Source of the DNA: Eledone cirrhosa
Taxonomy: Eukaryota
Assembly (NCBI GenBank): GCA_964016885.1
Contig: OZ024762.1
Coordinates: forward strand, 16,616,001 to 16,680,000
DNA length: 64,000 nt
Direction: 5' to 3'
Below the pieces are notes generated by a model. The model was given only the letters and a program-made list of their open reading frames with translations. It was not told the DNA's origin and searched no databases. Below, in pieces: positions 6,897-46,716 of the stretch (position 1 is its first letter; every line of letters begins with the position of its first letter). The translations under genes and the position numbers were made by a program.

Positions 6897-6962
6897 TTAA
6901 TCATCATCTTCGTCTTCAGATTCTTCTTCAGCCTGTTCCAACCATGTCAGCCACTGATTCAC
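6897..6962 (-). CDS. EIF4G2: eIF4G2 last coding exon
   Basis: VNQWLTWLEQAEEESEDEDDD-TAA. Confidence 0.96.
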   Translation of the reverse strand: MNQWLTWLEQAEEESEDEDDD

Positions 6963-12900: not shown

Positions 12901-15876
12901 CACATTTCTAATGCAACACAACACCCTCTATTTCAATTAGTTAATGAAGAATTTTGAGGGATTTACTAAAATTATCAATCATTTCATTACTAAGATAGTA
13001 ACTTAATGAAGGTTCTTGTATAAAAATATGTTGGAAGATTTTAATTTAGAATTGGAAACCTTTAAAATGAGTGCTTTTATTTCAAAGAATCGGGGCCAAT
13101 TTTGGCTGGGTTGGTAATGAAAGGGTTAAGGCCACCTTCCTTTAGACCCTTTAACAAATATATCATACCCATTATAGTCGTTTTGACCTTAGTGCTTGAT
13201 TGGTACCTTATCGACCCCAAAAGGGAGCAAGGCAAAGTTAGCCTCCATGGGATTTCAACTGAGAATACAGAGAGCCGAATTGAATATCCCCAAAACTTTC
13301 TACCCAACGCTGTAAAGCCTCAACCAGTACCAATAGAAATATTAAATGACAGTCACTTGTCACAACTTAGAAATAGAAATCTGCTTTAGAAAAAGGCTGC
13401 GATGAATTTTATTTCTAATTTTTTAATTTAAAAAAATTATTTTTAGAAGAAATAATAAAAAGTTAACAAATACATTATTTAAATGTGAAAATATGAGCTC
13501 TTACCAGGTAACATGTCTTGCAGGTTTATCTTACTTTCATTAAAGACATTCACTAGCCATTCCTTGTCCTTCTGTTTGTGCATTTGTTGTAGAGAAATAA
13601 GGAAGAGTGGATAGTGGGCTCCTTTATCCAAAACCTCTGCAAGATCTGACAGGCTGATAACATTCCCTCCTACTCCATGTGCCGCATAACTGGCCACATA
13701 TGATTTAATCAATGGAACATCAGTCTCCAGGTCTGCTAGTTTTTCAAGCACACTACGGTAAGCCTGCAACAGAAACACAGAAATATTATAGTACAACAAA
13801 TGTTTTAACCCTTTAGCATTTAAACCAGCCATATCTGGCTAGAACTCGCCTCCTTCTGTTCAAAATGGCTGCTCATACCTACATTAACCCTTTAGCATTT
13901 AAACCAGCCATATCTGGCTAGAACTCACCTCCTTCTGTTCAAAATGGCCGCTCATACCTACATTAACCCTTTAGCATTTAAACCAGCCGTATCCGGCTAG
14001 AACTCACCTCCTTCTGTTCAAAATGGCCGCTCATACCTACATTAACCCTTTAGCATTTAAACCAGCCGTATCCGGCTAGAACTCACCTCCTTCTGTTCAA
14101 AATGGCCGCTCATACCAACATTAACCCTTTAGCATTTAAACTGCTATTTAAAAACCAAGATACAGCAGTAATGACATGTCAGTTGTATGATACAGTATGA
14201 TACATCATATATGACATCTACTGAAGTACTAAGACAGCAGTAACGACACATCATATAAGACATCAACTGAAGTACTAAGACAGCAGTAACGACACATCAT
14301 ATAAGACATCAACTGAAGTACTAAGACAGCAGTAACAACACATCATAGATGACAGCTATAGAAATACTAAGAGGCAAGCAGTAAACTTTACTTACTCCCA
14401 TAAAAGTTTCTGATGTTATGAGGTTTTCTGGTTTCATACCAACTATAAGATTCATGACTTTCTCTCTTTCAGTATCTGTAAAGAAAAACAAACAATGAAA
14501 CAGTTGTAACCCTGTAGGAGTCATTTCTATAATCATATTAACATAGGAATCAGATGCAGTGGGCAGGAGAGGAGATTGCATTGGTATCGACATGTGCTGT
14601 GTATGAAGGATGACAGCTGTATAAAAAGGTGCAGAGCACTCAAAGATGATGGAAGCCATGGAGTGGAGAGACCCAAGAAGACTTGGGATGGGGTGATAAA
14701 AGCTGACCGTGTACAATTGAACCCCTCAAAGGTGATGACACAGGACCAAAATCTCTGGTGTTACGCAATACAGAAGACCTAACTTTCCATTGGCACAGGC
14801 CAAAGCTGAACCATCCATATATACAGTATGCACCACCCCACCCACTCCCATGAGGACAAGTTGAAGTATACATCCAGTGAAGCCTCCAGCCCACACTGTA
14901 AAGTGGTTGTGTAGGTGTCATGACAATAAACACCCAGCCCACACTGTAAAGTGGTTGTGTAGGTGCCACGACAAAAAACATCTAGGCCACACTGTAAAGT
15001 GGTTGTGTAGGTGTCATGACAATAAACACCCAGTCCACACTGTAAAGTGGTTGTGTAGGTGTCACGACAAAGCACCCAGCCCACACTGTAAAGTGGTCAT
15101 GTAGGTGTCACGACAAAAAGCACCCAGCCCACACTGTAAAGTGGTCATGTAGGTGTCACAACAAAAAGCACCCAGCCCACACTGTAAAGTGGTTGTGTAG
15201 GTGCCACGACAAAAAACATCTAGGCCACACTGTAAAGTGGTTGTGTAGGTGTCACGACAAAAAGCACCCAGCCCACACTGTAAAGTGGTTGTGTAGGTGT
15301 CATGACAAAAAACATCTAGGCCACACTGTAAAGTGGTTGTGTAGGTGTCATGACAAAAAGCACCCAGGCCACACTGTAAAGTGGTCATGTAGGTGTCACG
15401 ACAAAAAGCACCCAGTCCACACTGTAAAGAGGTCATTAGGTGTCACAACAAAAAGCACCCAGCCCACACTGTAAAGTGGTTGTGTAGGTGCCACGACAAA
15501 AAACATCTAGGCCACACTGTAAAGTGGTTGTGTAGGTGCCACGACAAAAAACATCTAGGCCACACTGTAAAGTGGTTGTGTAGGTGTCACGACAAAAAGC
15601 ACCCAGCCCACACTGTAAAGTGGTTGTGTAGGTGTCATGACAAAAAGCACCAAGTCCACACTGTAAAGTGGTTGGCGCTAGGAAAGGCATCCAGCAGTAG
15701 AAATCAGGCCAGAATCAGTTCCCGTTCCACCCTTGCAAGCAGGGAAAAGCGGACGTAAAATGAAATGATGATGATGATGATGATAGAGTGAAACAAAATT
15801 CACGGTGATTGAAAAAAATTTTGTTATACTGAAAAATTTGTTATAATGGTATTTGTTATAACGGAATTTTACCTGC

Positions 15877-15911
<35 letters not shown>

Positions 15912-16403
15912 TAAATTAGTGAGAATCGTATTTTGGCTTAGGAATTAACGAAAAACAACTTCCGAGATGTGTGGCAAGCGCTCAATGATTCAGATGAACC
16001 AGAGCTACAAAATACGCTAAAGGCCAAACACACCGAGACGATGGTTAAACAATCATCCGCACAACCATAAAAACGACCAAGTAATTCGGGTCAAACAAAT
16101 AAAAATATATGTGATTGAAATTATTAGAAATGTAAGCTATCGCCATATTTTGATAATGGACACTAAATTTTGACTAAAGAAATTAAAGAAATTATTTAGC
16201 CTCATAGTGGGGTTAAGAACCCTCGGAGAAATGGAAAAAGATGAGTATTGACGTACATGGGAATCGAACCCACATCTTTGGTTATCCGGGCCACTGTGCT
16301 ACCATTTACACCAACACCCTCGGAGAAATGGAAAAGGAATTCTTAACCCCACTATCAGGCTAAATAATTTCTTTAATTTCTTTAGTCAAAATACGGCGAT
16401 AGC

Positions 16404-16446
<43 letters not shown>

Positions 16447-19400
16447 ATATATATACTCACCGGTTTTGTCCACATTGTTTATCATCATTTTGTAAATGCT
16501 ATCGGCAATAAATCTGAAATTAAATTATTCATAAACTTAGTTTTCTTTTAAGAAACAAAGACTCGGAGACTCAGAGTTATAATCAACAGTTTTGGGAACA
16601 AGTTTCAAATTTTCCATGAAACAACTACAAGAGAAATTCCTAATTAGAATCAACTACCTTTATCAGTGTTGCCTTCTTTAACTTTGTATTGCGCTGGCTC
16701 CAGCCCGTAGCCTGCTGATGACTTTAAGCTATAGACCACAGTGTGTTGTTAACCCTTTAGCATTTAAACCGGCCAGAATTCTCTCACCTCTTTCTGTTCA
16801 AACCAGCTATAACTGGCCACTCATACTGATGTTAAGGTATTGTTCTCATAGATTCAATATTATGTGCGATAAAGCCTTTACCGTGAAAATGCAATAGTAA
16901 ATTTAGAATAATGTAAATATTAAAAGGGTTAAGCAATTCAAACTATGTTATAATCATACAACTTTTTGTGTTGCTTTTCACTGTGCATTGTGCTGGCTCC
17001 AGCCCACAGCCTGCTGATGACTTTGTAAGCTGTAGATCACAGTGTGTTGTTAAACAGTCCACACTATATAAACATGAGGTCTTACAGTGCAGCACATTCA
17101 GCAATTATCTCTACTATAGCCTCAACTTGACCAATGCCTTGTCAGTGAATTTGGAACCTCACTTTATAAGTCTAGCTAAGTAAATAAAAAACCCAACATA
17201 AAAACAATGATGAAATACACCCAGTACACTCTGTAAAGTGGTAGTGTTGGTGTCATGATATAATACGCCCAGTACACTCTGTAAAGTGGTAGTGTTGGTG
17301 TCATGATAAAATACACTCAGTACACTCTGTAAAGTGGTAGTGTTGGTGTCATGATAAAATACACCCAGTACACTCTGTACAGTGGTAGTGTTGGTGTCAT
17401 GATATAATACGCCCAGTACACTCTGTAAAGTGGTAGTGTTGGTGTCATGATAAAACACACTCAGTACACTCTGTAAAGTGGTAGTGTTGGTGTCATGATA
17501 AAATACACCCAGTACACTCTGTACAGTGGTAGTGTTGGTGTCATGATATAATACGCCCAGTACACTCTGTAAAGTGGTAGTGTTGGTGTCATGATAAAAT
17601 ACACTCAGTACACTCTGTAAAGTGGTAGTGTTGGTGTCATGATATAATACACCTAGTACACTCTGTAAAGTGGTAGTGTTGGTGTCATGATATAATACAC
17701 CTAGTACACTCTGTAAAGTGGTAGTGTTGGTGTCATGATAAAATACACTCAGTACACTCTGTAAAATGGTAGTGTTGGTGTCATGATATAATACACCCAG
17801 TACACTCTGTACAGTGGTAGTGTTGGTTGTCCCACCATGACAAAGTAATAATGGACACTAAATTACACAGTTATCTTCAAAGAAAATGAAATAAAGAAAT
17901 GGAATAGAATATACTTACTTATTTGGAGCATTCAAATCTTTAACTGCACTGGTTGCCGCTTGGACATCTCCAGAGTTAAAGTAATCATCAAGTAAGGAAG
18001 TCTAAAGATAGAAGAAACAGGTCAAGAATTAATGGCCTGCACCAGATGAAACCACATTAACAAGACATTCGGAAGTACAAAACAGCACCGTGGTTGTGTC
18101 ACATTAACTATTAACCCTTTAGCATTTTAACCAGCCATCATATCTGGCTAGAAGTCTCTCACCTCTTTCTATTCAAACCGGTTGTAACCAGCCACTCATA
18201 CTGATGTTAAAAGTATTGTTCTCAAAATAAAGATCATCAACATCCCATAGATTCGATATTATATGAGATAAAGCCTTTACCACAAAGATACAATAGTAAA
18301 TATAGAGTAATGCAAATGCTAAAAGGTTAGTCTTTATTCTAATACTGAACATTTTCACAACCACCTGTCCACCAGTAAAGAAACGATATAGATTTGAATA
18401 AACAAATCACATTATTGATTTCCTAAAATAGGCACACAGAAAGGTCAATTCTACAAATTGGAAAAGAAATTTTAATAAGAATAAATTTACCAAATTTCAT
18501 GATATATAGGAACCCCTTCCCATTTCTACAGGGAATATTAAAGTTTTAAAAAAAAAGCCTCCTACCTCCTACTTTACATATAAAATTTGGGCAATATTTT
18601 TTTAAGGGGGTGAAATAATAGTTGTGTATACCATCAAATATGATCTACCAAATATCAACCAGAAATTCAAAATATAATCTAAAAAAGACTAAACATTAAA
18701 ACCATTTGATTCAGTTCTTACCATGCTGTTTTCAAGCTCTTTTTTGGTAAGAGGAGCTTTTTTGACTGCCTTGGATTTTTCTGGATTGGCCTGTTTGATG
18801 GTAATTTGAGGCTGTAAAGAAATTAAATAATTTAAATATATTTAAATAATTGTTTCTATTTTTTGGCACAAGGCCAGAAATTATCCCAGAGCATTGCCAA
18901 TAATGTTTTGGGGAATGGTGAAAGTTGATTAAATTGACCCCAGTGCATCACTGGTACTTTATTTTATCAACCCTGTAAGGATGAAAAGCAAAGCTAACCA
19001 CACACCTATATATATATTTAAATAATTGTTTCTACTTTTGGCACAAGGCCAGCAATTATCCTAGTGTATTACTGGTACTTTATTTTATAGACGGCGTAAG
19101 GATGAAAGGCAAAGTTAACCTCGGCGGGATTTGAATTCAGAATAGAAAATGCCGTAACTGTTTTCTGAAAAGCTTGTGGTTAGGCTGTTGGGTTCACAAT
19201 TGTAAGGCTACGAGTTCAATTCCAAATCCAACTGGTGTTTGTTCTTGAGCAAGACTTTATTTAACGTTGCACCAGTCCACTCAGCTGGAACAATTGTGTC
19301 AAGCTCTATCGGCTTTTGCCTTCCCCTAGGACAAAATCGATGGCTTGAAGATGGTATGCATGGGCGATTGCTGGTTTTTCCACAAAATAACTTGACCAGG

Positions 19401-22400
19401 CTTGCACCTTCGAGTGGTCAGTCATGTATGAAGGGAGCCTTGTATATATAAGCATGTAGGAAAATGGATGTTAAATGATGATATATATAATAAAATGTTG
19501 TAGTTTGCTTGAAGCATTATATATAATATATAATGTGGAAAGTGATAGAAGGCTAAACAATGCAAACTGGACAGTAAGATGAAGATGAATAAAAAGTTAC
19601 CTGGTAATCTTTTTTTTTAATGAGTGTGCATATATATATATATGTTTCGGCCACGGATGGCTAACAACATCCAGGCCGAAACAAATGAGGTCGTGTAGGT
19701 GTCACGACAAAAAAACACACAGTCCACGCTGTAATGTGGCCGTGTAGGCAACACGGTAAAAACCTCCCAGTCCCACACTGTAAATGTGGTTGGTGTTAGG
19801 AAGGGCATCCAGCTGTAGAAAACCTGCCAGACAGTCCACGCTGTAATGTGGCCGTGTAGGCAACACGGTAAAAACCTCCCAGCCCCACACTGTAAATGTG
19901 GTTGGTGTTAGGAAGGGCATCCAGCTGTAGAAAACCCGCCAGACAGTCCTATGCGAGCAAGACAACCACTCTTGCCTCAAGTGGGAAAACCCCCGTCCAA
20001 ACCCATGCAAGCGTGGAACACGGACGTTAAACGTTGATGATGATGATGATGATATATACATATATACACCTGAATAAAACAAATACTAACCTGCTTATTT
20101 ATCAAATGTGGATTTGGGTTGGATCCCATGTCATATAATGGAGGTTGGAAATTTGTTTGAGGCGTCCCAATCAATGGGCGAACCGGCTTAGACAACATGT
20201 TTGGTACTGATGGACGTAACATGTTAAATGGTTTGTATGGTCGAAGGTTTATGTCTTCAGGTCCTGAGTTTGGTTTCTCCTGTACAACTGGTGGCTGCAT
20301 GTTCATTCTCATAAATCTTTGAGGCAAATCTCTTCCAGGTGCTGGAAAGGCTGTTTAAAGAAAATCAAAGATTCAAGCATCAGAAAATGTTGTAATCAAG
20401 GAATTATAAAAATTCTTATTTTTACTTTTTTATTTTTTTTTTTTACTATAAACCTAGTCATTTTTGACAGGTACTATGTTAGAGACAAACTCCTTACATA
20501 AAATTATAATGGACGGTTCCAATAAGTTTCGTATCATAGAAATGGGATGGGTTCAGATGGTTTGAAATCAAAAGAGTTAAGGGGAGGCTTTGATTGATAG
20601 AACCAGAGCTGGTTGGGAGCTGATTGGTATAAAAAAGGTTACACAAACACACAAGTTATAGTTAATATAAATACAGTGTTTCCCCTATTATTATAAGACC
20701 TACTCTGAAAATAAGTCCTAGCGCATTTTTGCAAGAAAAATTAATATAAAAAATATAAAACGCAAGATTTCCAGAATTTTGCCGATTACTAGCATATATC
20801 TTTTAATATTGTTTTTAACTCTATAACATATATCTTTCAATGATATTAACTCTATAATTATATCCTTTATTTTTGACATCGGTATAACAATATTTTTATC
20901 AAAACTCTTGCGCTGTTATTTTTTGTGTAAAAAACATAAACCCTACCCCGAAAATATACCCTAATGCCTTTTTTTTTTAGGGAAAAATAATATAAGCCCT
21001 GTCTTATAATAGGGGAAACACAGTAAGTAGAACAACTGCCCTTTATCTCACCTTGTGTCCTCTGCACAGAACTTAAAGGTGGCTGTGCCAATAACGGTGA
21101 TTGCATTGGTGCCAATGGAAGAGATTGATGGTTCTGCGGATTTTGAAACATAGGTGGCGCTGATGTTTGTTGTGGGTTAACTCGTCTGGCAGATCTGGGG
21201 CTGGTACCTGTACCAACAACCCCCATTCCAAACCCAATACTGTTCCCAACTGGGCCTCCACCACTGTTGTCTTGCATCCGTCTATTGTTGAACTGATTGG
21301 AAAAATTACCTGCAAGTGAAATTAAGAGAAAAACAAAAATGTCCATTATTGTAAGGGGTCACACGAGAGATGATAAAGGACCAGAACAAGTAGAAGGATG
21401 CTGTGCTAGAAAAGACCCATCTAACCCATGCAAACATGGATAAGTAGATGTAAAACAAAGATGTTTTTTTACAAGATATTTATCTTTGTATTCAATGGAT
21501 AAGATGCCTTTCTTAATCTCAGAATCATTATAATTTTATGTCAGTTTTTCTCATCCTAGTGAATATTAGATATGTCATTACAAGACCAATTAGCATGGTT
21601 AACATATTTCCAACGACATTTACTATATTTAAAATAATTAAGAACTTTGAGGAGTTTATTAAAATCATTAATTAGTTTAACCCTTTAGTATTTAAACTGG
21701 CCATAATTCTCTCAGCTCTTTCTGTTCAAACCAGCTTTAACTGGCCACTCATAATTATGTTAAGGTATTGTTCCCAAAATAAATATCAAAATCTCATAGA
21801 TTCGATATTATATGAGATAATTATGTAAGTTTTGGAAAAGGAAAATCAAATTACCTGGTGTTGGCTGACTGCCTCTCCTGCCCATATTCATTGAATAACC
21901 TGACAAAAAGCCATCTGCTTGAATTACACCTGGCCCAGTACCAATGTTATCTACAAGAGAAAACATCTCTGAAATGAGTAAATGTGTGTAAGAGTTAAAG
22001 AAACCAAGTGAAAAAAAATACAAAAATACAAAAATACGAGAGAGAGGGGGGATAAGAGAGAAAGAGATATAGAGGGGATAAGAGAGAAAGAGATATAGAG
22101 AGGAGAGAGAAAGAGATATAGAGGAGAGAGAGAGAGATAGAATAGAGAGAGGAGAAAGATAGAGAGAGGAGAAAGAGAGAGAGAAAGAGAGAGAGAGAAG
22201 AGAAAGAGAGAGAGAAGAGAAAGAGAGAGAGAGAGAAGAGAAAGAGAGAAAAAGGATAGAAGAGAGAGGAGCATAAAAAGTCAACAAGATACAGTGTCTA
22301 AAAGTTAAGAACAAGATCTGGGAACAAGATCTAAAAGTTAAGAACAAGATCTGGGAACAAGATCTAAAAGTTAAGAACAAGATCTGGGAACAAGATCTAA

Positions 22401-25400
22401 AAGTTAAGAACAAGATCTGGAAACAAGATCTAAAAGTTAAGAACAAGATCTGGGAACAAGATCTAAAAGTTAAGAACAAGATCTGGGAACAAGATCTAAA
22501 AGTTAAGAACAAGATCTGGGAACAAGATCTAAAAGTTAAGAACAAGATCTGGAAACAAGATCTAAAAGTTAAGAACAAGATCTGGGAACAAGATCTAAAA
22601 GTTAAGAACAAGATCTGGAAACAAGATCTAAAAGTTAAGAACAAGATCTGGGAACAAGATCTAAAAGTTAAGAACAAGATCTGGGAACAAGATCTAAAAG
22701 TTAAGAACAAGATCTGGAAACAAGATCTAAAAGTTAAGAACAAGATCTAAAAGTTAAGAACAAGATCTGGAAACAAGATCTAAAAGTTAAGAACAAGATC
22801 TGGGAACAAGATCTAAAAGTTAAGAACAAGATCTGGAAGTTAACAACATAGTGTTTATAAAATGACCTTAAAATTGTAGTTCTTTATTAAGATATCTTTA
22901 TTAAATGAAAGAAATACAAAGACATCAATTATACTTACTAAGCAATCCAGTAGGGGCAGCACTAAATATGTCTGCCAACCCCCCTCTGTGGCATGGTCCC
23001 ATATTTCCGTTCATCATGCGTGATCCAAACAAACTGCCGGCAGGTCCACCGCTACGCCCCGATCCATCCGGAAGACCAAGGTATATTCCAAACTCCTGAG
23101 GACAAAAGAAAAAAATTAAGTAGACAAAGTTGAAGCTTAAAATAAAAATAAAATATATATATTTCAGTATTTGTGCTAATCCTAACCTATGGCATGAATC
23201 TTGAGTAATGACCGAAGGAATACGATTGTGAATACAAGCAGCCGAAATGGGATTCCTCTAAAGGGTCTTTGGTGTAACGATACTCAATAGAGTGAATAGC
23301 TTGGAGATCAGAGAGTCACTCCAGGTAGAGCTGCTACTTCTTCGAATTGAGAGATCACAGCTCTGATACTATGGACATGTGGTTAGAATGTCTCAGGAAA
23401 GAATCACTGGACAGATTTGTAGCTCAGAGATCAGAGAGTCACTCCAGGTAGAGCTGCTACTTCTCCGAATTGAGAGATCACAGCTCTGATACTATGGACA
23501 TGTGGTTAGAATGTCTCAGGAAAGAATCACTGGACAGATTTGTAGCTCAGAGATCAGAGAGTCACTCCAGGTAGAGCTGCTACTTCTCCGAATTGAAGGA
23601 TCACAGCTCTGATACTATGGACATGTGGCTAGAATGTCTCAGGAAAGAATCACTGGACAGATTTGTAGCTCAGAGATCAGAGAGTCACTCCAGGTAGAGC
23701 TGCTACTTCTTCGAATTGAGAGATCACAGCTCTGATACTATGGACATGTGGTTAGAATGTCTCAGGAAAGAATCACTGGACAGATTTGTAGCTCAGAGAT
23801 CAGAGAGTCACTCCAGGTAGAGCTGCTACTTCTCCGAATTGAGAGATCACAGCTCTGGTAGTATGGACATGTGGTTAGAATGTCTCAGGAAAGAATCGCT
23901 GGACAGATTTTACGGACAAAACCAACTGGCAGAAGACCCACCGTGAGCCAGATGGTTGGATAACATCCACAAGCTCAACTGGTCTCACTTGGAGACGGTT
24001 GCTTCTGACAGGACCTGCTGGATGACATGCTTGAGGACTCTGCCCCAACGAAACTTTCCAAGAATAAGTGGGAGAAGAAGAAGCAGGGTTAAGATGGTGC
24101 CCCAACATGGCTCAGTCTAATGATTTAAACCAGTAAAAGAATAAAATGACAGCAAATACTTACATCTGCAGCTTCTTGTCGTATTTGGGATATTGTCTTT
24201 GGTCCATGATCACTAAGCACCTTCCGTGGTACCCACTAGAAAATATATAAGACATTGTCATATTAAAAAGAAATTGTCTTGCTACAGAAAATAACAGGTA
24301 TGTTAAGTCTCTACATACTGTGGTAAGACATTCTACAACACTTAGTAAGACATTCTTGAAAAGTACAAAACATTATGACTACACCACGTTATAAATTTTA
24401 AGTCTATTTTAATACTGAACATTTTTACAATCTGCTCTGCTCACTAGTAAAGATACTATAAACATTTGAATTAACAAACCACATGACGTTCTTAAAAAGT
24501 ACAAAACATTAACCCTTTAGCATTTAAACCGGCCATTCATACTGACATTAAGGTATTGTTCTCAAAATAAATAATATCAAAATCTCATAGATTCAATATT
24601 ATGTGAGATAAAGTGTTTACCATGAAAATATAATAGTAAATATAGAGTAGTGTAAATGCTAAAGGGTTAAAATTTAAAGTCTAGTTTACTGGCAAATCTT
24701 CACAACAATCTGTCCACTAATAAAGATGCTACAAACATTTAAATTAACAAACCTGATTCTAGATAACTTCTAAATCGTTACAGGGTGTTAAGAGTTAATG
24801 ACTAAAATGTGTAAAGTTGTACAAATCTCTCAAAGCATTTACAGTTTACAATAAGACATGATAAAATGTATATAGTTACCTTGTTGGCCCGTAATTCAAC
24901 AACATCTTGAAGCATGAAGCGAATTCGTGAGGGCAAATCTGAATTAGAAGCGAAGTTCTTAATTCGCTCAAAGTACTTATCCATCCAGGCCTGAAAAATT
25001 AACAATTTATAAGTTTTAAACAGTTCACTTTCCAGGAGAAAAAAAATAAAGAAATTTGAACATTGACAAATTTTTTTTTAAAATTAACCCTTTTGATACC
25101 AAACAACCTAAAACCAGTCCTGGGTCTACAATAAAAAGCTGTTTATTTTTTATCTAAAAACCTTCAGATTCTTTATTTTCAAAATTATAGGCAGTGTATT
25201 TCATTAGAAATATGGTAACAAAAGGGTTTAACTATAATTATATACAAATCAAACAATGACACTAAAGCTGGGAGCATCTACATGGATGATCAAAGTGTTA
25301 AAAACAGCAGCCAAGTCATCCCCAAACTGCTAGAAACAGCAACCAAATCTTCCTACTATCTTTAGAAAAAAAAAGGCCCCATTAAATAATGTAGTGCTAG

Positions 25401-28400
25401 ACAAACTATCCCTGAAAATAGGATGAGATGACATAGGTGGATATATTTTGTTTCATCACAGGTATACTTAAATAGAACTGACCTAGGCTAAACAGAAAAT
25501 ACATTGACATCAGTCATATATTATGTTGACATCAGTCATATTATTATGTTGACATCAGTCATACACTATGTTGACATCAGTCATACTATGTTGACATCAG
25601 TCATACACTATGTTGACATCAGTCATATTATGTTGGCATCAGTCATATTATGTTGGCATCAGTCATACTATGTTGACATCAGTCATACACTACTGGGACA
25701 TTAGCCACACATCATCATCATAGTTTAATGTCCATATTTCCACGCTAGTATGGGTTAAACTACACACTACACAGATACCAGTCATATATAAAAACAAAAG
25801 AAAAATCACCCACCTTAGCCTCAAGTGAGTCAAGGCGCCGGCCTACGGTACGGATTATCTGGCACAAACACTCCAAGTCCTCAGCCATATCTTTAACGGG
25901 AAGGTTTTTCTTCTTTTCCAATAGCTGCTTGATGCATTTGTGCAAAATACCCTCGTGCAGCATTTCCAGTTTGCCAAGTTCACCTGCAATTAAATTAAGA
26001 CATCCTTAATTACAAACATAATTGAATAGGAAGAAAAAAAAAATTAAATCTCACACCTATGTAGGTCTACCTGGAGTGACTCTGATCGCCGAGTTTCACA
26101 CTTTCCAAATTGAGAGATCACAGTGTCGGAGAGGAGGGAGGGAGGGAAGGGGATAGGAAAATGTGTTTAAGGTTTTTCCCAAGATTTCTCCCAGGCCAAA
26201 TAGAATAATCATGTCATGTTTGGAGATTTTTATATATTTGTACTGTTTTTTATTGTTATTAAAGAATCACTGGACAGATTTTACGGGCAAAACCAACTGA
26301 CACGAAACCCAGAGGTAGACCCCGAGCAAGATGGTTGGATAACATCCATGAGCTTGGCTGGTCTCGCCGCTTGGGGATCCAGCTGGATCAGCTGCTTCTG
26401 AGAGGACCTGCTGGAGGGAGTGTTTGAGGACTCTTTCCCCACGACCCTCTTAGGAATGGGTGGGCGAAGAAGAAGACCTATGCAGGTTTAGCTAGCCTCC
26501 TCATTGGTTTCTTGTGTGTTTTATGACAGGGGTTCCAGTTTTATAATACTATTGTTGTTACACCTCATAATTATATGTTTAGCTGGCTGCCTATATGGTT
26601 GCATTGCATTGGAGGTTTCTTGGGTGTTTTAATGATAGGGACCCAAGCCCTATCAACACTACATGTTACAGCTCACACTACTGTAGGTTTAGCTGGACTC
26701 ATACAAGGCTATATCTGATTGAAGGCTTCTTTGATGTTTTAATAATAGGGTCCCCAGTCTTATGTTGTTACAGCTGTGAAGGTTTAGTTGGCGGCTGGCT
26801 TCCTATGAAGTTGTACCTGGTAGATCTCTTTCTTCTTTTTTTTTTTTGGAAGGTGTTCTAATGGAGGGGGGGGGGGGGCAGTTGTATCATGAAAAGCAAC
26901 GTGGAATAAAGCATCTCGCTCAAGAACACAAAGTCAGCACTTATAGGACACATGCCTAAGTACTCAGTCGAGGACTCAAACCCCAAACTCTAAGAGGCCA
27001 ACACTAACCACTAGGGCACATGCCTAAGTACCCAGTCCAGGATTCAAACCCCAAACCTTATTAGCTTATGACCAAGATCTCACCACTAACCACTAAGGAC
27101 ACATGCCTAACAGAATGACAGAAGTTAGATTACCAATCACAAAACAAAAATATACAACAGTAAACAATAAAATCTCAACTGACCAATAAATTTGATGTTG
27201 CCCAGCATTTTCTGTTTAGCCAGATGGTATTGCTCTGCTTCATCATCATTGAGGGGGCCATCTTTCTTATCAAATGCTGCAACAAAATAAACAACAATAT
27301 ATCATCATTTAACATCTACTTTCCATTCTCACATGGGTTAACCCTTTAGCATTTACATTACTCTATACATACTATTGTATTTTCACAGGAAAGGCTTTAT
27401 AGCATTTACATCACAATATATATACTATTATATTTTCATGGTAAACACTTTATCTTACGTAATTATCTCACAATATGGAACCTATGAGATTTTCATATTA
27501 TTTATTTTGAGAACAAAACCTTAACATCAGAATGAGCGGCTGGTTACAGCCGGTTTGAACAGAAAGGGGCCAGTTTACAGCCAGTTTAAATGCTAATGGG
27601 TTCAAGGACACACACATACAATATGTATAATATGAAGAGAACTTGTTTACCTTCGGTAGCACGGGATCGGTTTTCAAATTCATCCTGGCACTTATTTAAG
27701 AGTAGACGTCGAAAAGTCTGAAACATTAAATGATTAAAAAATTACAGGAGTTAAACTTTAACAGACTTTGGTCATAACTATAGGAGTTAAAATATAACAG
27801 ACTTTGGTCATAACTATAGGAGTTAAAATATAACAGACTTTGGTCATAACTATAGGAGTTAAAATATAACAGACTTTGGTCATAACTATAGGAGTTAAAA
27901 TATAACAGACTTTGGTCATAACTGTAGGAGTTAAAATATAACTGACAGTCATAACTATAGAAGGTAGACTATAACATGACTTTGGTCATAACTACAGGAG
28001 TTAAACTATAACTGACAGTCATAACTATAGGAGGTAGACTATAACATGACATTAGTCATAACTAGAGGAGTTAAACTATAACATGACATTAGTCATAACT
28101 ATAGGAGTTAAACTATAAGACTTTGGTCATAACTACAGGAGTTAAAATATAACTGGCAGTCATAACTATAGGAGGTAGACTATAACATGACTACAAGAGT
28201 TAAACTATAACATGACATCAGTCATAACTACAGGAGTTAAACTATAACTGACATTAGTCATAACTGTATGGCATGGACCCGTATCTCCTGAGTTGTAGAG
28301 GTGCCATATTGACATACAGAATTTCTTAGTGCATTTTAAAATCTGGAGAAGCCCCCATCTCCAATTCAAGGTCTGAGTACAGCAGATTTCTTCCAGAGGA

Positions 28401-31400
28401 CAGAGAGTGGGAGACTGGTAGTGAGAAAGAAAAAGAGATACAGAGGAAGGATTGACCCCAGTACTTGACTGGTATTTTTTATTTATTGACCTTGAATGGA
28501 TGAAAGGCAAAGTTGACCTTCACAGGAATTGAGCTGAGAGAGAAGAGAGCCAGAATGAATACCTCAAAACTCTCCGACAATCTAACAACTCTACAACAGG
28601 AGTTATAAAATATTTTGATATATTCTAAATATATAAAAGAAATTTATTTAAAACCAATGATTTTTTAACACACACGCACGTTTGAAAATACACACATAGA
28701 AAATTTGAAAATATATTCACCAAAATACAGGTAACTATAAATAATAGTTCAATAGATCAGGTAAAGTACTCCAGTCCACTATACACCTTTTTTGCACCTC
28801 CAAGAGTACTTTATCCAATATCCTCAGCTATTATTTATAGCTATCAACTATTTTTATAGTTTATCTACATTGTCAAACACACACATGAAACCCGACTGAA
28901 ATAGGATAAAAAAAATAAAATAACTTACAATAGTTTTAGTGGAAGAGTGATCAAAATTTGGAGCGTCCTTACAGAGACGGTGACATAGCTGTGCATAAAG
29001 TGAACTATATTTTGGCTCATCTAAGGCTTTTTCGAAGATCTGCAAATAAATTGAAGAGAAATATTTTAAAATTGATCACATGTAACAACAAAAAGTTAAT
29101 AAAAATTTTTTTTTATTAGGCTGCCTGAAACCATACCTGGTTTTACACGCACACACACATCATTTTAGCGTCAATCTTTCCATGCTTGCATGGGTTAGCC
29201 ATGTTGCACCTTCCTCCGGCGAGGACTGTAAATTCGGCTGGGTATTTTACAGTTGGATGCCCTTCCTAACACCAACCACATTTACAGTTTTATATATATA
29301 ATGTTGATTGCTACTTTTAGTCAGAAAAGTACCACCATTTCATTGAACATTGTACGGAGGTGACTTTTCAGACCCGCTTTTGTTTTGCAGGTACATTCAC
29401 AGATGTGACACTTGAGCTGTCTGTCTCCTCTTAAAACAAGCTCCGTGGTTAGTTTGACACTAGGATGGGGAACTTAACATCTCCCTTGAACTACAATCTC
29501 TTCTTTAACCCTTTAGCATTCACATTGAATTGTCAAATGTCATGTTCATCTATTCGCATTATTTTCACTTAATTATACTCAAGAGGGTTATCAATTTTAT
29601 TTGTTTGTAATTACTTTAATTTTCTATGTGCAGACTTGAAATTTTGTCAGTAGATGTTTAAATAACTATAATTTACAATTATATATTTTTACCTGATTTT
29701 TTTTGTTAAATTTGACTTTTATGGGCAAGTGAAATTAATTAACAGGTGTAAAAGTAATAACTTTATGGATAAACACAAAAATTTAAACTTTATCTGCCTT
29801 ATCTGTTAGATTTGTTGCAAAAAAATCCAATAATGATCTAGATGCTGATTTCCATCAATTCTAGCAGTTTTCTGAACAGGTGAATTAATTAAAAATGCAG
29901 GTGTAATCAGTACACGGTTTTAGTCTTTCTCTACATTCCAGGCAAATATTTTCATTGAAAAAAATGTATAAAACCTTTTCACCGGTCAAAATAATATTGG
30001 CAATGTACTCTGTAAATGTACGGTGTAAAATTACATAATAGAAAGTTCCCAATATATAAGTTTATACACACTTTTAAATTTTTCTGACAATATTTCAATT
30101 AATGGTCGTACTTTGTACAATGGGTCGTAATTTGATTCATTTCTACCAGGGGCATTTGAAGTATCAACTAGATGCAAATACTGGTTTAATTTAATGAATC
30201 TCGTTTTTGCCATAATACTAGATATATAAGGGTCACCAAACCTTATATCAGTACTCCAATAATTCCACAGTCGTGGAAATTGTTTAATACCAAACATAAT
30301 ATTTATGGTAAAAAACGCTTTCATTTCGGCAGAATCTGTCGGACAACATAACAGATCGGGTTTTCCGATATTAGAAATTTGTTGTTGTGCATAGCGATTT
30401 GCCACAACTTCGAAGAAAGATTGTGGTAAAAATAAAAAATAATAATCCAGTGCTTTAGCATCGGGTGGTAATGTGTGTTGTGGTCCAATATTTTCAGTAA
30501 AATCCGAAACATGTATCGATGTTGTTTCTTTCAACCACGTTGCTATTTTTTCAATGGTGTCAGTCAAATCTTCTCTTTCACTTTCAAAGTAACTATCATC
30601 ATTATCAGATATATCAGAAATAAATATATCTGATTCGTTTGAAGATAAATCACTGATATTATCTTCTGTTTCTTTTTGATCTCGAATGTCGTCGGACGTA
30701 AAACCTTCAAATTCGTTGTCGCTACTTTCGGAAGCCATGTTACACTTTCAACGTTAAAAACACGTGTTATCGCAAGTTCTTTAACTATACTAAGAGTTAA
30801 TTTTCGCGCGTAAGGGCTTTATCTCGCAGTAATCTCGAATTGACGAGATTTCGATGATGTCAATGTTTATTTTTAGAAGGAAATCTCCGTGTGGTATTAA
30901 ATGTCGGTTTTTGTCGGTTTGAATAAATGAAAGGGGACATAATTTTGTCGGTTTTTGTCGCTTTGAACGCTAAAGGGTTAAGTGTCAACCTATATCAGCT
31001 AGTATTGACCATAGTTTTTCAATCATTGGTAAAATACTAAAAGACAAGAGTTTTTCTCCTGAGAACTTGGAATTTTATATTGCAGCAATGTATAATATAT
31101 AAATAGTTTTGATTTTATCATTTGTTATTTTTTTTTAATGAATAATAAAGATTTTGAGTTTTTTTTCTAATTTCTTTAGGTCTCCATAAAGTCTAAAAAC
31201 AAAAAAAAATTATGGTTTAAAAAAAAAAATAGCCCTAATAATTACAAAAGAACAAGAATCCTTACCAGAAGAATAATTCCCTTAAGGATGAGCTGGGAGT
31301 CAATACCAACATTTAGAAGCTCCAAACTTAACTTATCAAACTTCTCCGGAGTAAGTTTATTGAGAATTCTAGAAAATAAAGAAATCATATTGTAAAATTA

Positions 31401-34399
31401 CAATTCAATATTCTCCAATCAATATTTAGAATGGTTCAATAATAAGATTTAAAAAGGTTTAACAATCAATACTAATTTAAAGATCTAAAATCATCAGCAG
31501 ATTGACAATTTTTACTGCATATCTTGTGTGTATATATATAACTCCTGAGGGAGTCAGAGGGATGCCATAGTGACATGCACTATGTCTTGGGCACATGAAC
31601 CCATTACCATTTACATTACTTTATATTTACTATTGTTTTTTGTTTTTTTATGGTAAACACTTTATCTCACATAATATTGAAGCTAATAGATTTTGATATT
31701 ATTTATTTCGAGAACGGTGGATTGGCAGTATCGGTAGAGAGTCAGACGCCATGCTTTCCAGCATAGTTACGTCCCTTTACGGTCTGAGTTCAAATCTCGT
31801 CGAGGTTAACTTTGCCTTTCATCCTTACGGGGTCGATAAAATAAAGTACCAGTAATGTACTGGGTAATTGCTGGCCTTGTGCCTAAAGTAGAAACAATTA
31901 TTTATTTCGAGAACAATACCTTAACATCAGTATGAGTGGCCAGTTATGGCAAGTTTGAACAAAAAGAAGTGAGAGAATTCTGGCCAGATGTAACCGATTT
32001 AAATGCTAAAGGGTTAAATCTGGCAGAGTCCATCTCTTCTGCAGATCTTAACATAACAGGTTCCTTCCAGAGACTGAGAGACAAGAAGTGATAAAGAAGA
32101 AAGAGATATATAGAGGAAGAATCGGCCCCAGTACGTGACTGGTACTTTTATTTATCAATCTCAAAAGGATAGAAAGCAACATTGATTATGGCAGGATTTG
32201 AATTCAGGACTCAGCAAGCCAGAATGAAAACTGAAGCATGTTGTTTGGAACTCTGATATCGCCAACCCACAGCAGGTTTTGAATTCAGAGCACAGAAAAC
32301 CGGAACATATACTGCAAAGCATGTTGTCTCATGCTCTACCAATACTGCCAATTCACCACCCAACTGCTAAAAATAACAACCTAAACTATAATAAAGGAAG
32401 GTCTGCGGGACTGCGTACGGTTTAATATTTTTTATCCCGTTAGTAAAATAAGTTGGATTACTTTGAAAAAATAATGAATGAATATTACATAATTTATCTA
32501 CTAAATTTCGTTATTCTTGATTAAATATAAATAATTATGTTGCTTATTTAAAGATTCACTTCTTTAAAATTTTCAAATGTCAACACTTCTGGTCAGCAAT
32601 CATTTAAATAAACATTCATATATTTCTGTCACTAATTTTTTCCTAATGCAGTTTATATATAATATCGTCTTTTTTTAATGTATCATGGATTACGTTACTG
32701 ATTAAATAAGACAGTGTAACGCAGTCTTCGTTTAATTTCTGTGTATATTGTCAATTACGATTTTATTTGATGTATCATATCTACATGTATATATACTTGC
32801 GTATAATATCAATATACACACTACACATGTTAGCAGAAAAACCGCCTGAAGGGTGGTTATTCTGCTAGTAATAATAATAATAAAAGTGTCAGAAAACATA
32901 CCCTCTGGCCTTACGGAATATCAGATCATTTTTCTCATCAACTGAAAGACCATCTCGTTGTTTACTAGGTGGATTCCATCTGAAAAAGTCGAAAGATTTA
33001 TTGTTTTAAAAAATCAAAAGCAAACAAAAAGGTAACAATCCAATTCAGTTATATTTTCTTAGGAAGCCTCTGAATTAAGCATGGGCACCTTTTGCAAGCA
33101 ATGAGCCACATGAGGCATGGCTCATAAGGTGACAGCACTATTAAAAAAAATTCAAGGTGTGCCAAAGCCAAATAAGCTACAGTTTACCTGCAACTGCTCT
33201 ATATGGTGTCCTCAATTTGCTAGAAACATCAGCCGAATGATCTCAAAATGACATCCTGTTTTATATTATTCATGTGGTATTTAGAACATGAAGCTCCTTA
33301 CATAAAATAATTGTTTCTACGTTTGGCACAAGGCCAGCAATTACTCAGTACATTACTGGTACTTTATTTTATCGACCCCATAAGGATGAAAGGCAAAATT
33401 AACCTCGACAAGATTTGAACTCAGACCATAAAGGGACGTAACTATGCTGGAAAGCATGGTGTCCGACCCTAATGATGGAAGAAGCTATTTAGATAAATAT
33501 AAACATTTTAACCCTTTTGTCACCATATTTCTAATAAAAAAATACTGCCTACTTCAATTAATTTTGAAAATAATCGACAATTAGAAGTCAGTCAGTAACA
33601 TAACTAATTATTTCATTTTTAATTATGTTTGAAACATAATTTAAACATTTTCATATAGCTATGGATGCAAGAGGTTATATTGTGTGTATCCCAGTTTTTA
33701 GAAAAGGTACACCATATCCCTGTGTATTGTGAGAGGCAACTAAAAGAGTTGACATCAGGAATGACATCTTAAACCATCCCAGCATGGAAATGTGGACAAA
33801 ACAAACTGCTTTGTATCATAAAAAACAGGGGTGGTTTCAGGCATTTTGGTATCAAAGGGTTAAGGTATTGCTGTAATATTACCTTTACTTAACTTCCCTC
33901 TCTCTCTCTCTCGCTCTCAAAAATGTGGCTAAAATAAACATAGTTGTTTTATTATGTATTACCATGGTTATTACGACCAGAATTGTCTCCAAGACAATTT
34001 GCTGATCATATAAACAGTATGAAGTGACCCGGTCCTATCACAAAAACAATGCCCCCATCAACGTTGTAGTACTACCTTTTATTTTAACCTTACGTTCACA
34101 AAATGTTAACCCTTTAGCATTCACATTACACTATATATACTATTGTATTTTCATGGTAAAGGCTTTACCTCACATAATATCAAATCTATGAGATTTTGAA
34201 AGTATTTTTTTGAGAACGATACCTTAACATCAGTTTGAGTGACCAGTTACAGCCAGTTTCCACAGAAAAAGGCAGAGAATTCTGGCCGGTTTTGAACATT
34301 AAAGGGTTAAAGTCACAATAAAACAGAGAGAAATGAGGGAAAAACTCACCGTCCTCCGGAGCGTCGGGAAACACCACCCTCTTCTTTATGTCCGTCCAG
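6897..34399 (-). CDS. EIF4G2: Eukaryotic translation initiation factor 4 gamma 2 (DAP5/NAT1/p97); whole spliced CDS, 23 coding exons, 2793 nt, 930 aa, inferred CUG start
   Basis: Exons join in phase at GT-AG sites. Diagnostic peptides: IFRKARGILNKLTPEKFDKL, IFEKALDEPKYSSLYAQLC, KMLGNIKFIGELGKL, SRIRFMLQDVVELR (MIF4G); IGTGPGVI; ETDVPLIKSY (MA3); EEEAFLKWKEDINDEYPGKGKALFQVNQWLTWLEQAEEESEDEDDD* (W2). No N-terminal eIF4E-binding extension. Confidence 0.96.
7614..7674 (-). pseudogene. tRNA-Phe(GAA) pseudogene lacking the T-loop
   Basis: GCTGAAATAGCTCAGTTGGGAGAATGTTAGACTGAAGATTTAAAGGTCCC|GAGTTTCGGCA; matches eukaryotic tRNA-Phe with about 12 nt deleted. Confidence 0.8.
8117..8238 (-). CDS. EIF4G2: eIF4G2 coding exon 22
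   Basis: MLRRFFMHFYDMEIIEEEAFLKWKEDINDEYPGKGKALFQ. Confidence 0.96.
8280..9130. repeat. 32-bp minisatellite, about 26 copies
   Basis: aatagcaggacattctcgtagtatggaaccac. Confidence 0.95.
9541..9637 (-). CDS. EIF4G2: eIF4G2 coding exon 21
   Basis: VVLQQFLHDHTDLQVVALYASQVFCYNNQFPK. Confidence 0.94.
9766..10212. repeat. 35-bp minisatellite
   Basis: cccaagtatgagagggtcaactttagagacagaga. Confidence 0.95.
10475..10764. repeat. 39-bp minisatellite abutting a splice donor
   Basis: aaggatatcttggtttatacaacacaataccattgaaga. Confidence 0.95.
10766..10877 (-). CDS. EIF4G2: eIF4G2 coding exon 20
   Basis: ILKYITKASTLLENCDPSIPPEKHLVEKEKDMLDKLK. Confidence 0.93.
11610..11862. repeat. 47-48-bp SINE-derived minisatellite
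   Basis: accactttatagtgtgggttgggcggttttgtcatgacacctacacg. Confidence 0.9.
12247..12451 (-). CDS. EIF4G2: eIF4G2 coding exon 19
   Basis: ECDQSKEKMMEILEDRSLSFLFPLLRIQSELWKQI...GFINILTT. Confidence 0.95.
13505..13763 (-). CDS. EIF4G2: eIF4G2 coding exon 18
   Basis: AYRSVLEKLADLETDVPLIKSYVA...GAHYPLFLISLQQ...SKINLQDMLP. Confidence 0.95.
13805..14141. repeat. 79-bp tandem repeat of the MITE left end, about 4 copies
   Basis: Unit starts ttaaccctttagcatttaaacc. Confidence 0.9.
14396..14475 (-). CDS. EIF4G2: eIF4G2 coding exon 17
   Basis: DTEREKVMNLIVGMKPENLITSETFMG. Confidence 0.9.
14885..15675. repeat. 48-bp SINE-derived minisatellite, about 16 copies
   Basis: cccagcccacactgtaaagtggttgtgtaggtgtcacgacaaaaagca. 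Confidence 0.95.
16461..16513 (-). CDS. EIF4G2: eIF4G2 coding exon 16
   Basis: FIADSIYKMMINNVDKT, phase 2-1. Confidence 0.88.
16753..16928. mobile_element. piggyBac-type MITE
   Basis: TTAA-CCCTTTAGCA...AAAGGG-TTAA. Confidence 0.8.
17043..17176 (-). ncRNA. Candidate intronic H/ACA-like RNA
   Basis: Two hairpins separated by AGATAA (ANANNA); second hairpin followed by ACA; sense to host gene; folded by eye only. Confidence 0.3.
17213..17826. repeat. 48-bp minisatellite, about 13 copies
   Basis: agtacactctgtaaagtggtagtgttggtgtcatgataaaatacaccc. Confidence 0.95.
17919..18001 (-). CDS. EIF4G2: eIF4G2 coding exon 15 (MA3 start)
   Basis: TSLLDDYFNSGDVQAATSAVKDLNAPN. Confidence 0.92.
18722..18811 (-). 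CDS. EIF4G2: eIF4G2 coding exon 14
   Basis: PQITIKQANPEKSKAVKKAPLTKKELENSM. Confidence 0.9.
20091..20350 (-). CDS. EIF4G2: eIF4G2 coding exon 13
   Basis: FPAPGRDLPQRFMRMN...EDINLRP...PHLINKQ. Confidence 0.9.
21052..21309 (-). CDS. EIF4G2: eIF4G2 coding exon 12 (low-complexity linker)
   Basis: NFSNQFNNRRMQDNSGGG...QPPLSSVQRTQ, cag/gtgag, phase 1-1. Confidence 0.88.
21855..21950 (-). CDS. EIF4G2: eIF4G2 coding exon 11
   Basis: NIGTGPGVIQADGFLSGYSMNMGRRGSQPTP. Confidence 0.92.
22038..22837. repeat. GA-rich tract followed by 33-bp minisatellite
   Basis: (GA)n at 22038-22270; aaagttaagaacaagatctgggaacaagatcta from 22298. Confidence 0.95.
22939..23095 (-). CDS. EIF4G2: eIF4G2 coding exon 10
   Basis: EFGIYLGLPDGSGRSGGPAGSLFGSRMMNG...GGLADIFSAAPTGLL, phase consistent. 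Confidence 0.9.
23305..23910 (+). repeat. 123-bp tandem repeat (5 copies) of a LINE ORF 3' segment
   Basis: Units start at 23305, 23428, 23551, 23674, 23797; contain the YGHVVRMSQERI-coding motif. Confidence 0.9.
24164..24235 (-). CDS. EIF4G2: eIF4G2 coding exon 9
   Basis: WVPRKVLSDHGPKTISQIRQEAAD. Confidence 0.94.
24513..24666. mobile_element. piggyBac-type MITE
   Basis: TTAA-CCCTTTAGCA...TGCTAAAGGG-TTAA. Confidence 0.8.
24880..24990 (-). CDS. EIF4G2: eIF4G2 coding exon 8
   Basis: AWMDKYFERIKNFASNSDLPSRIRFMLQDVVELRANK. Confidence 0.95.
25814..25983 (-). CDS. EIF4G2: eIF4G2 coding exon 7
   Basis: ELGKLEMLHEGILHKCIKQLLEKKK...DLECLCQIIRTVGRRLDSLEAK. Confidence 0.95.
27184..27276 (-). CDS. 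EIF4G2: eIF4G2 coding exon 6 (contains first in-frame ATG, codon 160)
   Basis: AFDKKDGPLNDDEAEQYHLAKQKMLGNIKFIG. Confidence 0.95.
27651..27717 (-). CDS. EIF4G2: eIF4G2 coding exon 5
   Basis: TFRRLLLNKCQDEFENRSRATE. Confidence 0.95.
27745..28265. repeat. Roughly 36-bp minisatellite
   Basis: aacagactttggtcataactataggagttaaaatat. Confidence 0.9.
28929..29039 (-). CDS. EIF4G2: eIF4G2 coding exon 4
   Basis: IFEKALDEPKYSSLYAQLCHRLCKDAPNFDHSSTKTI. Confidence 0.95.
29509..30977 (-). mobile_element. Internally deleted piggyBac transposon
   Basis: TTAA duplications at 29505-29508 and 30978-30981; TIRs CCCTTTAGCATTCA / TGAACGCTAAAGGG; contains the N-terminal half of a transposase ORF. Confidence 0.9.
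30031..30738 (-). pseudogene. Truncated piggyBac (PGBD4-like) transposase
   Basis: Acidic N-terminus, then EMKAFF..I.FGI...YWST...MAKTRF..L...LHL.D and DPLYKVRPLIE; stops before the DDD catalytic core. Confidence 0.88.
31266..31368 (-). CDS. EIF4G2: eIF4G2 coding exon 3
   Basis: ILNKLTPEKFDKLSLELLNVGIDSQLILKGIILL, tag/gtaag. Confidence 0.95.
31716..31896 (+). mobile_element. Full-length tRNA-derived SINE (about 180 bp) with target-site duplication. Other copies at about 3108-3283, 5876-6170, 18850-19160, 33310-33470, 35250-35680, 36317-36520, 39820-40050, 43650-43765, 61937-62123
   Basis: A/B-box-like head (ggcagtatcggtag...gagttcaaatc); 18-bp duplication attatttatttcgagaac on both sides; many dispersed copies. 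Confidence 0.85.
32902..32979 (-). CDS. EIF4G2: eIF4G2 coding exon 2
   Basis: WNPPSKQRDGLSVDEKNDLIFRKARG, cag/gtatg. Confidence 0.93.
34110..34306. mobile_element. piggyBac-type MITE. Further copies at about 7680-8075, 18115-18330, 21680-21830, 27340-27600, 31600-32012, 36635-36822
   Basis: TTAA-flanked, TIR CCCTTTAGCATTCA, shared internal sequence. Confidence 0.8.
34350..34399 (-). CDS. EIF4G2: eIF4G2 coding exon 1 (coding part of exon 34350-34465), CUG start
   Basis: Acceptor tttcag at 34466; in-frame TAA at 34450-34448; ataCTGG then DGHKEEGGVSRRSGG; donor CG|gtgagt in phase with the next exon. Confidence 0.82.
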
Positions 34400-34889
34400 T
34401 ATGCTGCTTGTTGTTGGAAGGAAACACCAACGTGCAGTTGTGATTATTTAAAAAAAAAATTTACCCTGAAAGAAAAAGACATTCGAAGAGAGATTTTAGC
34501 AATGTAAACTGACAAACTCATTTTACACAACATATATAAAATATGTGGGGCTTATTATGGTGGGTGCACATACATTTGGTAGGTCACATTGCAATAATCC
34601 TTCAATAAGTAACCCTTTTGATACCAAACTGTCTGAAACTGACCCTTCTTCCTGAGGGTGTCATGAGGGCAGAGTCCTCAAACACTCCTTCCAGCAGGTC
34701 CTGGCAGAAGTAACAATCTCCAACTGATCAGGCTGGAATCCCAAGCATGACCAGCCAAGCTCATGGATGTTATACCCTGTTCTGCGCTGTATAACTATGT
34801 CCTTTAAAGTGTTTATGGTTATCTAAGAACCTTCCTTCATAATTTTATGTAGGAACATTTGTTAAGCTGTGTTCCGAACACCAGCTGAA

Positions 34890-45971: not shown

Positions 45972-46544
45972 CATGCCAACCGCTGTTTCCCCATCCAATT
46001 AAAAAAAATGTAATTTTAGTTTAAATTCTTCCATATTATCTTTTATTATTCAGTTTTTAAGGAAATAATATGAATTAATTACGCTACATTTCTCAAAATA
46101 CATAAATATAGATTTATCTTTTTGTTATTTTAAAAAAGAAATTAACAACGCCATGAAATTAACGAAGACAGTGAGAAGACTGGTATAAACTATTTCCAAA
46201 TAACTGTAGAAGAATATAAGAACCATCGAGAAGAATTTAGATAAATAATGAAAAGGTTTCGGAATAATGATAAAAATATATATTGATGGTGTAAATAATT
46301 ATTGTAAAAATATATTTTTAAAAATTCTGGTAAGTTGTCAGAAAAGGGAGGCAACTTTGCTGAGGAAGAGCAGTAAATAGTGAGAAAGACATGAATGAGA
46401 ACAGAGATATAAAGCTAAAGATGAAAAAAACATTTGTTATAAAAATAAAAATAACCGTATAAGATGAGTAAAAAGCCGGTTTCATTAGCGAAAATATTAA
46501 CTTACAAGCTTGGCTCATCAAAAGAGACAACAGGGAGATATTTG

Positions 46545-46716
46545 ATTGTGTAGTCCGGGCGTAAATATATCTCGGAAGGAGAGCCAGGCCCCCCGACTTG
46601 CCAGTAAAAATGGCTGGGCAGCTTCACTTAAGATGGCGGCCACGGGAAAGAGTCGGGGAAGGCGGCGATGGTGTACAGTAGGCGTACGACAAGGCAACTC
46701 CTACTTCTCTTTCAGG
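46545..46716 (+). promoter_or_regulatory. CpG-rich putative TSS/first exon of ZNF143 with YY1 motifs
   Basis: GC/CpG-rich patch in AT-rich DNA; AAGATGGCGGC at about 46630 and AAAATGGCTG at about 46607. Confidence 0.5.

Follow-up and report, generated by a model that had tools for sequence, protein, structure and literature searches.

Probable CUG initiation of eIF4G2 in the octopus Eledone cirrhosa at a start position that carries near-cognate codons in other bilaterian lineages

Translation of eIF4G2 in the octopus Eledone cirrhosa very likely starts at a CUG codon. The gene lies on the minus strand of a stretch of 64,000 nucleotides (NCBI GenBank assembly GCA_964016885.1, contig OZ024762.1, positions 16,616,001 to 16,680,000), called the window here, and its coordinates are used throughout. 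Our confidence in CUG 34399 as the main start codon is high because relatives carry a near-cognate codon with A at -3 and G at +4 at the homologous site, and because the identity of that codon is lineage-specific. Literature is cited from partial texts of the papers concerned, and statements drawn from it reach as far as those texts do.

Results

The predicted start lies in an exon with the following features.

34350..34465, minus strand: start-codon exon with 66 nucleotides (nt) of 5' leader and the first 50 coding nt, flanked by AG and GT; covered in full, with 0 differences, by contig 9 (see below)
34448..34450, minus strand: in-frame TAA that ends the frame 16 codons ahead of the CTG; it is part of the exon covered by the spliced contig
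34397..34399, minus strand: CTG, predicted initiation codon, with A at -3, G at +4 and A at +5
34400..34402, minus strand: ATA directly before the CTG, with A at -3 and C at +4; possible minor start

A preliminary description of the window had read this exon in the same way, and its reading stands: the TAA closes the frame in the sequence and in the spliced contig alike, the CTG lies at 34399 in the context described, and in-frame ATGs begin only with codon 160 at 27208, which lies inside MIF4G (codons 39-261) and is preceded by 13 out-of-frame ATGs. The only other in-frame near-cognate codons between TAA and CTG are ATA 34447, ATC 34444 and ATA 34402. We found no in-frame AUG able to yield the full protein in the window gene or in the contig, although contigs may miss minor isoforms.

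Transcript evidence comes from contig 9 of run X4 (3119 nt, depth 173.9), which contains exon 34465-34350 at record 128-243 and 25981-25813 at record 698-866; each of these is matched once in the genome (G000), a count of matches and not of copies. The gap between the two pieces is 452 nt, exactly the sum of five predicted exons, and the contig is therefore spliced, with the in-frame TAA within the transcript. As it was seen as these two pieces only, its inner junctions, including the predicted one from 34350 to 32979, follow by arithmetic.

For comparison, 75 related metagenome loci were fetched, of which 63 had the MIF4G start motif and 12 did not, and 40 of the 63 could be anchored at an N-terminal GG motif by a pattern composed after the sequences had been seen. 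Orthologue 5' ends, to which the preliminary description had pointed, carry a near-cognate codon at the homologous site in all 40 anchored loci; together with the window the count is ACG 35, CTG 4 and GTG 2, and A at -3 and G at +4 are found in 33 of 33 distinct contexts. By lineage, the lophotrochozoan-like transcripts have CUG, the deuterostome-like ones GUG and the arthropod-like ones ACG. The encoded residue thus varies (L, V, T) while the codon is always near-cognate, and such codons average 21% of those residues' codons in the same genes. An unguided MAFFT alignment finds the same start column, adds the dipteran-like locus L075 (ACG), and puts the CTG of the window in the column of the vertebrate V/M, so that the homology to the vertebrate start proposed earlier is upheld; the contig and the codon-level conservation support the non-AUG start at CUG 34399. 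In a quick tree the CTG loci group with molluscs and an annelid, the ACG loci fall among arthropods, and a crinoid and vertebrates are the neighbors of the GTG loci; deep support in this tree is weak and the lineage labels of the loci are therefore approximate.

Across 224 columns in 17 lineage representatives, the start column is the strongest outlier in third-base constraint (nominal 4e-13, next 1e-6), six orders of magnitude ahead of the next column. In-frame stops lie just 5 codons upstream in L002, L004 and L005, and the 9 nt before the CTG are common to the window and the gastropod-like L002.

Proteins extend the picture. Anchoring succeeded for 96 of the 169 database proteins that have at least 500 amino acids and the MIF4G start motif; in these 96 the residue at the start position is T in 53, L in 33, K in 4, V in 3, G in 2, Y in 1 and M in 0. 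The residues I-L-D stand seven residues before the GG motif in proteins of bivalves, gastropods, a chiton, cephalopods, Lingula and other relatives, and in 33 of 33 L-type database proteins. Two models, P0009 (Tegillarca) and P0078 (vertebrate-type), begin with Met exactly at the start position; both were compared as proteins, and the Met of P0009 (Tegillarca granosa) at the CUG-homologous site reflects either the annotation of a CTG start or a real return to ATG.

Several arthropod sequences deserve mention in their own right. Copepod-like transcripts have a tandem ACG-ACG at the start site, parallel to the AUA-CUG of molluscs. Dipteran-like L075 has ACG at the conserved site (L075:397), as against the AUU that FlyBase gives for Drosophila NAT1, and in the fly-like proteins P0208 and P0211 a long annotated extension precedes the same Thr. 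Many hymenopteran models (P0154-P0177 in part) begin at a Met 42 residues before MIF4G, and in the genomic loci L048:3004 and L076:577 the hymenopteran-type ATG stands just before an AG, a potential acceptor; this Met is either an annotation artefact or a genuine AUG start among hymenopterans.

A number of points speak against CUG 34399, or against the generality of the pattern. The transcript support is a single contig from a single run of one study, a run of unrecorded kind, and rare forms are lost from contigs. CTG nucleotide contexts number just 4 (the window and 3 others), and 23 of the 63 loci lack the anchor. The 17 representatives were picked from near-cognate rows, and the nominal p-values are inflated and ignore kinship. 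In the MAFFT start column, 12 of 47 rows have other codons; all of these N-termini are unalignable and several have an upstream Met. An in-frame Met precedes MIF4G in 3 of the 40 anchored loci (L021, L059, L074); in L021 it is an AUG that lies 50 codons ahead of the ACG. Several of the unanchored lineages may have AUG starts. Finally, the 16 codons 34400-34447 are near-invariant between octopus and cuttlefish, which an upstream start could also explain.

Divergent, unalignable N-termini are seen in the eIF4G2-like transcripts L011, L022, L038, L044, L032, L052, L055, L056, L060, L062, L064-L066 and L070, several of them with an in-frame Met before MIF4G. This group may represent lineages or paralogues that left the non-AUG state.

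Downstream of the CUG, the second coding exon opens with an out-of-frame AUG.

32902..32979, minus strand: second coding exon, 78 nt, similar to the second copy of an exon that cuttlefish annotations show in tandem
32965..32979, minus strand: short out-of-frame reading frame that opens with an AUG 50 nt past the CUG and has 4 codons and a stop; A at -3 and G at +4 once spliced

This first out-of-frame AUG arises at a conserved Arg-Trp junction. Immediately ahead of the conserved Trp, 14 of 17 representatives have a codon with A in third position, against an expectation of 6.4, as do 31 of 35 rows; control X-Trp junctions have an A there in 25 of 101 cases (32.8 expected). However, the column before the Trp ranks only 9th of 224 by third-base constraint, with other columns as constrained, and the presence of any out-of-frame AUG within 150 nt, in 17 of 17 representatives, is near expectation (joint p 0.065). 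The preliminary description had assigned ATG 32979 the role of absorbing ribosomes that leak past the CUG. The 4-codon reading frame is there and the sink logic has already been stated for human EIF4G2 (PMC3105428, PMC9082881); specific conservation in the present comparison is moderate, and a specifically selected sink site is plausible.

Contig 9 extends 127 nt upstream of 34465, and the candidate source of this part, unverified, is 46632-46506.

46506..46640, minus strand: candidate non-coding first exon, unverified, with a GT donor at 46505 and a YY1-like motif at 46639

The motif at 46639, which we take to be YY1-like, is the sole one of its kind across 130 kb upstream. If the candidate exon is joined to 34465, AUG 46518 would open an upstream open reading frame (uORF) of 5 codons 79 nt before the CUG. 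The human mRNA has an AUG uORF in its leader. Short AUG uORFs lie 85-91 nt upstream of the start codon in L003, L004 and L012, minimal AUG-stop frames at a distance similar to that of the window's candidate, and most arthropod-like leaders have none. An alignment of 7 leaders at the DNA level revealed no common motif outside the start context. We claim no downstream hairpin, because the start-codon exon folds no better than shuffled sequences (z +1.62, 189 of 200 as good).

The locus as a whole is an intact octopodid eIF4G2 gene in a genome of 3.0 Gb (the window is its contig C23). The best named matches of one exon are Octopus and Argonauta eIF4G2 (93-98% identity), and the quick tree nests the window among octopod eIF4G2. 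Exon boundaries were fitted to the O. sinensis model P0228, with whose residues 25-960 the window protein aligns without gaps (898 of 936 identical). The Pfam order MIF4G-MA3-W2 was obtained on P0228 and not on the window's own protein; the MIF4G domain, residues 63-285 of that model, corresponds to codons 39-261 of the window gene. Against PDB, P0228 is nearer to eIF4G2 chains (6e-125 and 6e-104) than to eIF4G1 (3e-73), and the N-terminal eIF4E/PABP-binding third is absent, with the TAA 16 codons before the CTG and MIF4G beginning at about codon 39. The coding model runs from CTG 34399 to the stop at 6899-6897.

6897..34399, minus strand: whole coding span, 23 exons, 936 codons, every intron GT-AG
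31266..31368, minus strand: MIF4G coding exon
28929..29039, minus strand: MIF4G coding exon
27651..27717, minus strand: MIF4G coding exon
27184..27276, minus strand: MIF4G coding exon with the first in-frame ATG (27208-27206, codon 160)
25814..25983, minus strand: MIF4G coding exon

In the cuttlefish records P0229 and P0233 the ancestral linker exon comes first and a shorter copy of it comes next. Of these two, only the shorter copy is present in the window, and the octopod N-terminus is therefore shorter than in other molluscs; the ancestral exon was not found in intron 34349-32980. The acceptor AG of exon 32902-32979 may be the AG of a former Arg codon. An intron also harbors a partial transposase remnant (30031-30747, minus strand) that matches Pfam DDE_Tnp_1_7 (E 7e-22).

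Discussion

Four other accounts of where translation begins have to be set against CUG 34399. An upstream near-cognate codon, chiefly AUA 34402 or else AUA 34447 or AUC 34444, is unlikely to be the main start, despite some arguments for it: all 33 L-type proteins have Ile before the Leu, 22 of 33 contexts have a near-cognate triplet as the -1 codon, the 16 upstream codons are near-invariant among coleoids, fly NAT1 is assigned AUU by FlyBase (PMC4528330), and human EIF4G2 has a minor upstream AUU start (PMC9082881). Yet the -1 codon is not near-cognate in the other 11 contexts, while codon 0 is near-cognate in all 33; AUA 34402 has C at +4; the Ile codon provides the A at -3 of the CUG; and the stops 5 codons upstream in L002 and L004 rule out a common start farther upstream. 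The translation of the 16 leader codons is almost identical in octopus, argonaut and cuttlefish, which suggests a strongly conserved coleoid leader element. The same AUA would also have to be the substrate if adenosine-to-inosine (A-to-I) editing turned it into AUI, read as AUG. A-to-I editing is extensive in coleoids and the in-frame AUA adjoins the CUG, but the exon in contig 9 has 0 differences (contigs drop rare variants), L003 has AUU at that codon, which is not convertible to AUG, and the gastropod-like L002 has the identical AUA-CUG, so that we regard editing as exceedingly improbable.

Several octopus models instead begin in an AUG-bearing first exon that would join the frame either at 32979 or at a point downstream of the TAA. 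In RefSeq, the models of O. bimaculoides and O. sinensis have homologous Met-first exons of 8 residues; different Met-first exons appear in O. vulgaris and in eight UniRef models of O. bimaculoides. No two of the three proposed exons are related, however, and none was found in the 130 kb upstream; the RefSeq-type pattern has 0 exact matches in the genome (a weak negative, as the genome is incomplete), and the RefSeq join would need an AG where the window has none. Moreover, the Argonauta model is partial and lacks a Met, and contig 9 uses the acceptor at 34465, with the proviso that contigs drop minor isoforms. We consider such an exon very unlikely in the window gene and infer that the octopod Met-first exons are gene-finder rescues of a missing ATG; the exon common to the two RefSeq models keeps a small probability in O. 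bimaculoides and O. sinensis. Initiation at codon 160, with the upstream exons untranslated, would use the first in-frame AUG, which has A at -3 and is used by some database models. A protein made in this way would be missing about half of MIF4G, the exons before codon 160 have an open frame and are strongly conserved, and 13 AUGs come earlier, all of which make it extremely unlikely. The preliminary description had expected automated annotation to cut the protein by 159 amino acids to this Met. For octopods this did not hold, their models having the unrelated AUG exons or being partial, whereas models of Haliotis, Lymnaea and Glandiceps do begin there.

With CUG 34399 as the start, the data suggest the following model. 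Scanning ribosomes would initiate at the CUG, presumably decoded by initiator Met-tRNA with partial efficiency, and produce a predicted MIF4G-MA3-W2 protein of 936 residues. Ribosomes that leak past it would be caught by the 13 out-of-frame AUGs, which begin at +50 with one in good context. Little of the codon-160 product, which would be without the first half of MIF4G, should therefore be made. If human cells are a guide, eIF4G2 output may follow start-codon stringency (eIF1, eIF5, 5MP). No other non-AUG start is as strong in human and fly cells as CUG in a Kozak context, initiation at such codons rises with eIF5 and falls with 5MP, and downstream out-of-frame reading frames have been proposed to block later in-frame starts (PMC5714202). 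What evolution appears to conserve, judging by the aligned sequences, is strong context around a deliberately non-AUG codon, and not the identity of the codon.

More broadly, we think it reasonably probable that bilaterian eIF4G2 has one ancestral start position. Its codon would have changed between the three strongest near-cognates (lophotrochozoans CUG, arthropods ACG, deuterostomes GUG) and almost never back to AUG. Selection would have held the start at a tunably weak level ever since the bilaterian ancestor, so that eIF4G2 synthesis would be an old gauge of start-codon stringency. Non-AUG initiation of eIF4G2 is in essence already known. The vertebrate start is GUG, and Smirnova 2019 (PMC6573783), in the text available, knows of no eIF4G2 mRNA that uses AUG and calls an unambiguous assignment impossible for insects, molluscs and simple chordates. 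Fly and ascidian orthologues begin at non-AUG codons (PMC9977666). The preliminary description had Drosophila NAT1 start at CUG, which the sources do not bear out: a FlyBase supplementary table lists AUU (PMC4528330) and a 2023 review calls the fly start "not precisely determined" (PMC9945437). The available parts of PMC6817820 and PMC5666671 add nothing specific. In the literature searched, which leaves out most subscription papers and also Takahashi 2005, which may bear on fly and ascidian, we did not find the mollusc CUG and arthropod ACG assignments. The octopus is thus an expected member with a codon variant, within a cross-phylum pattern that we did not find in print, and to a specialist the result will be satisfying rather than surprising. 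The comparison names one start codon per lineage and indicates that the N-termini in current octopod protein records are likely false. If the ancestral-position reading is true, it would assign start sites in invertebrates that reviews call undetermined and put the annotated AUU of the fly in question.

The closest known system is vertebrate EIF4G2 (NAT1, DAP5), the orthologous gene, with the same aligned start position, the same A at -3 and G at +4, and, after the start, out-of-frame AUGs that come before any in-frame one (PMC3105428, PMC9082881). The differences are that the sole start there is GUG and in the octopus CUG, that the octopus lacks the GCC-rich NAT1 motif defined in mammals (GCCGCC(A/G)NN; PMC13754004) and differs in the stretch from -9 to -4, that its linker before MIF4G is much shorter, and that the mollusc start is predicted from sequence. 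Drosophila NAT1 likewise has no usable AUG and a near-cognate start, but dipteran-like L075 and other arthropod-like transcripts have ACG at the site homologous to the octopus CUG. The mammalian genes GTF3A, R3HCC1 and BAG1L (PMC5714202) resemble the octopus gene in their CUG start, the lack of a downstream in-frame AUG and a short out-of-frame reading frame as proposed sink. GTF3A, however, has AUG at the equivalent position outside mammals, whereas the non-AUG state of eIF4G2 spans bilaterians while the codon itself changes.

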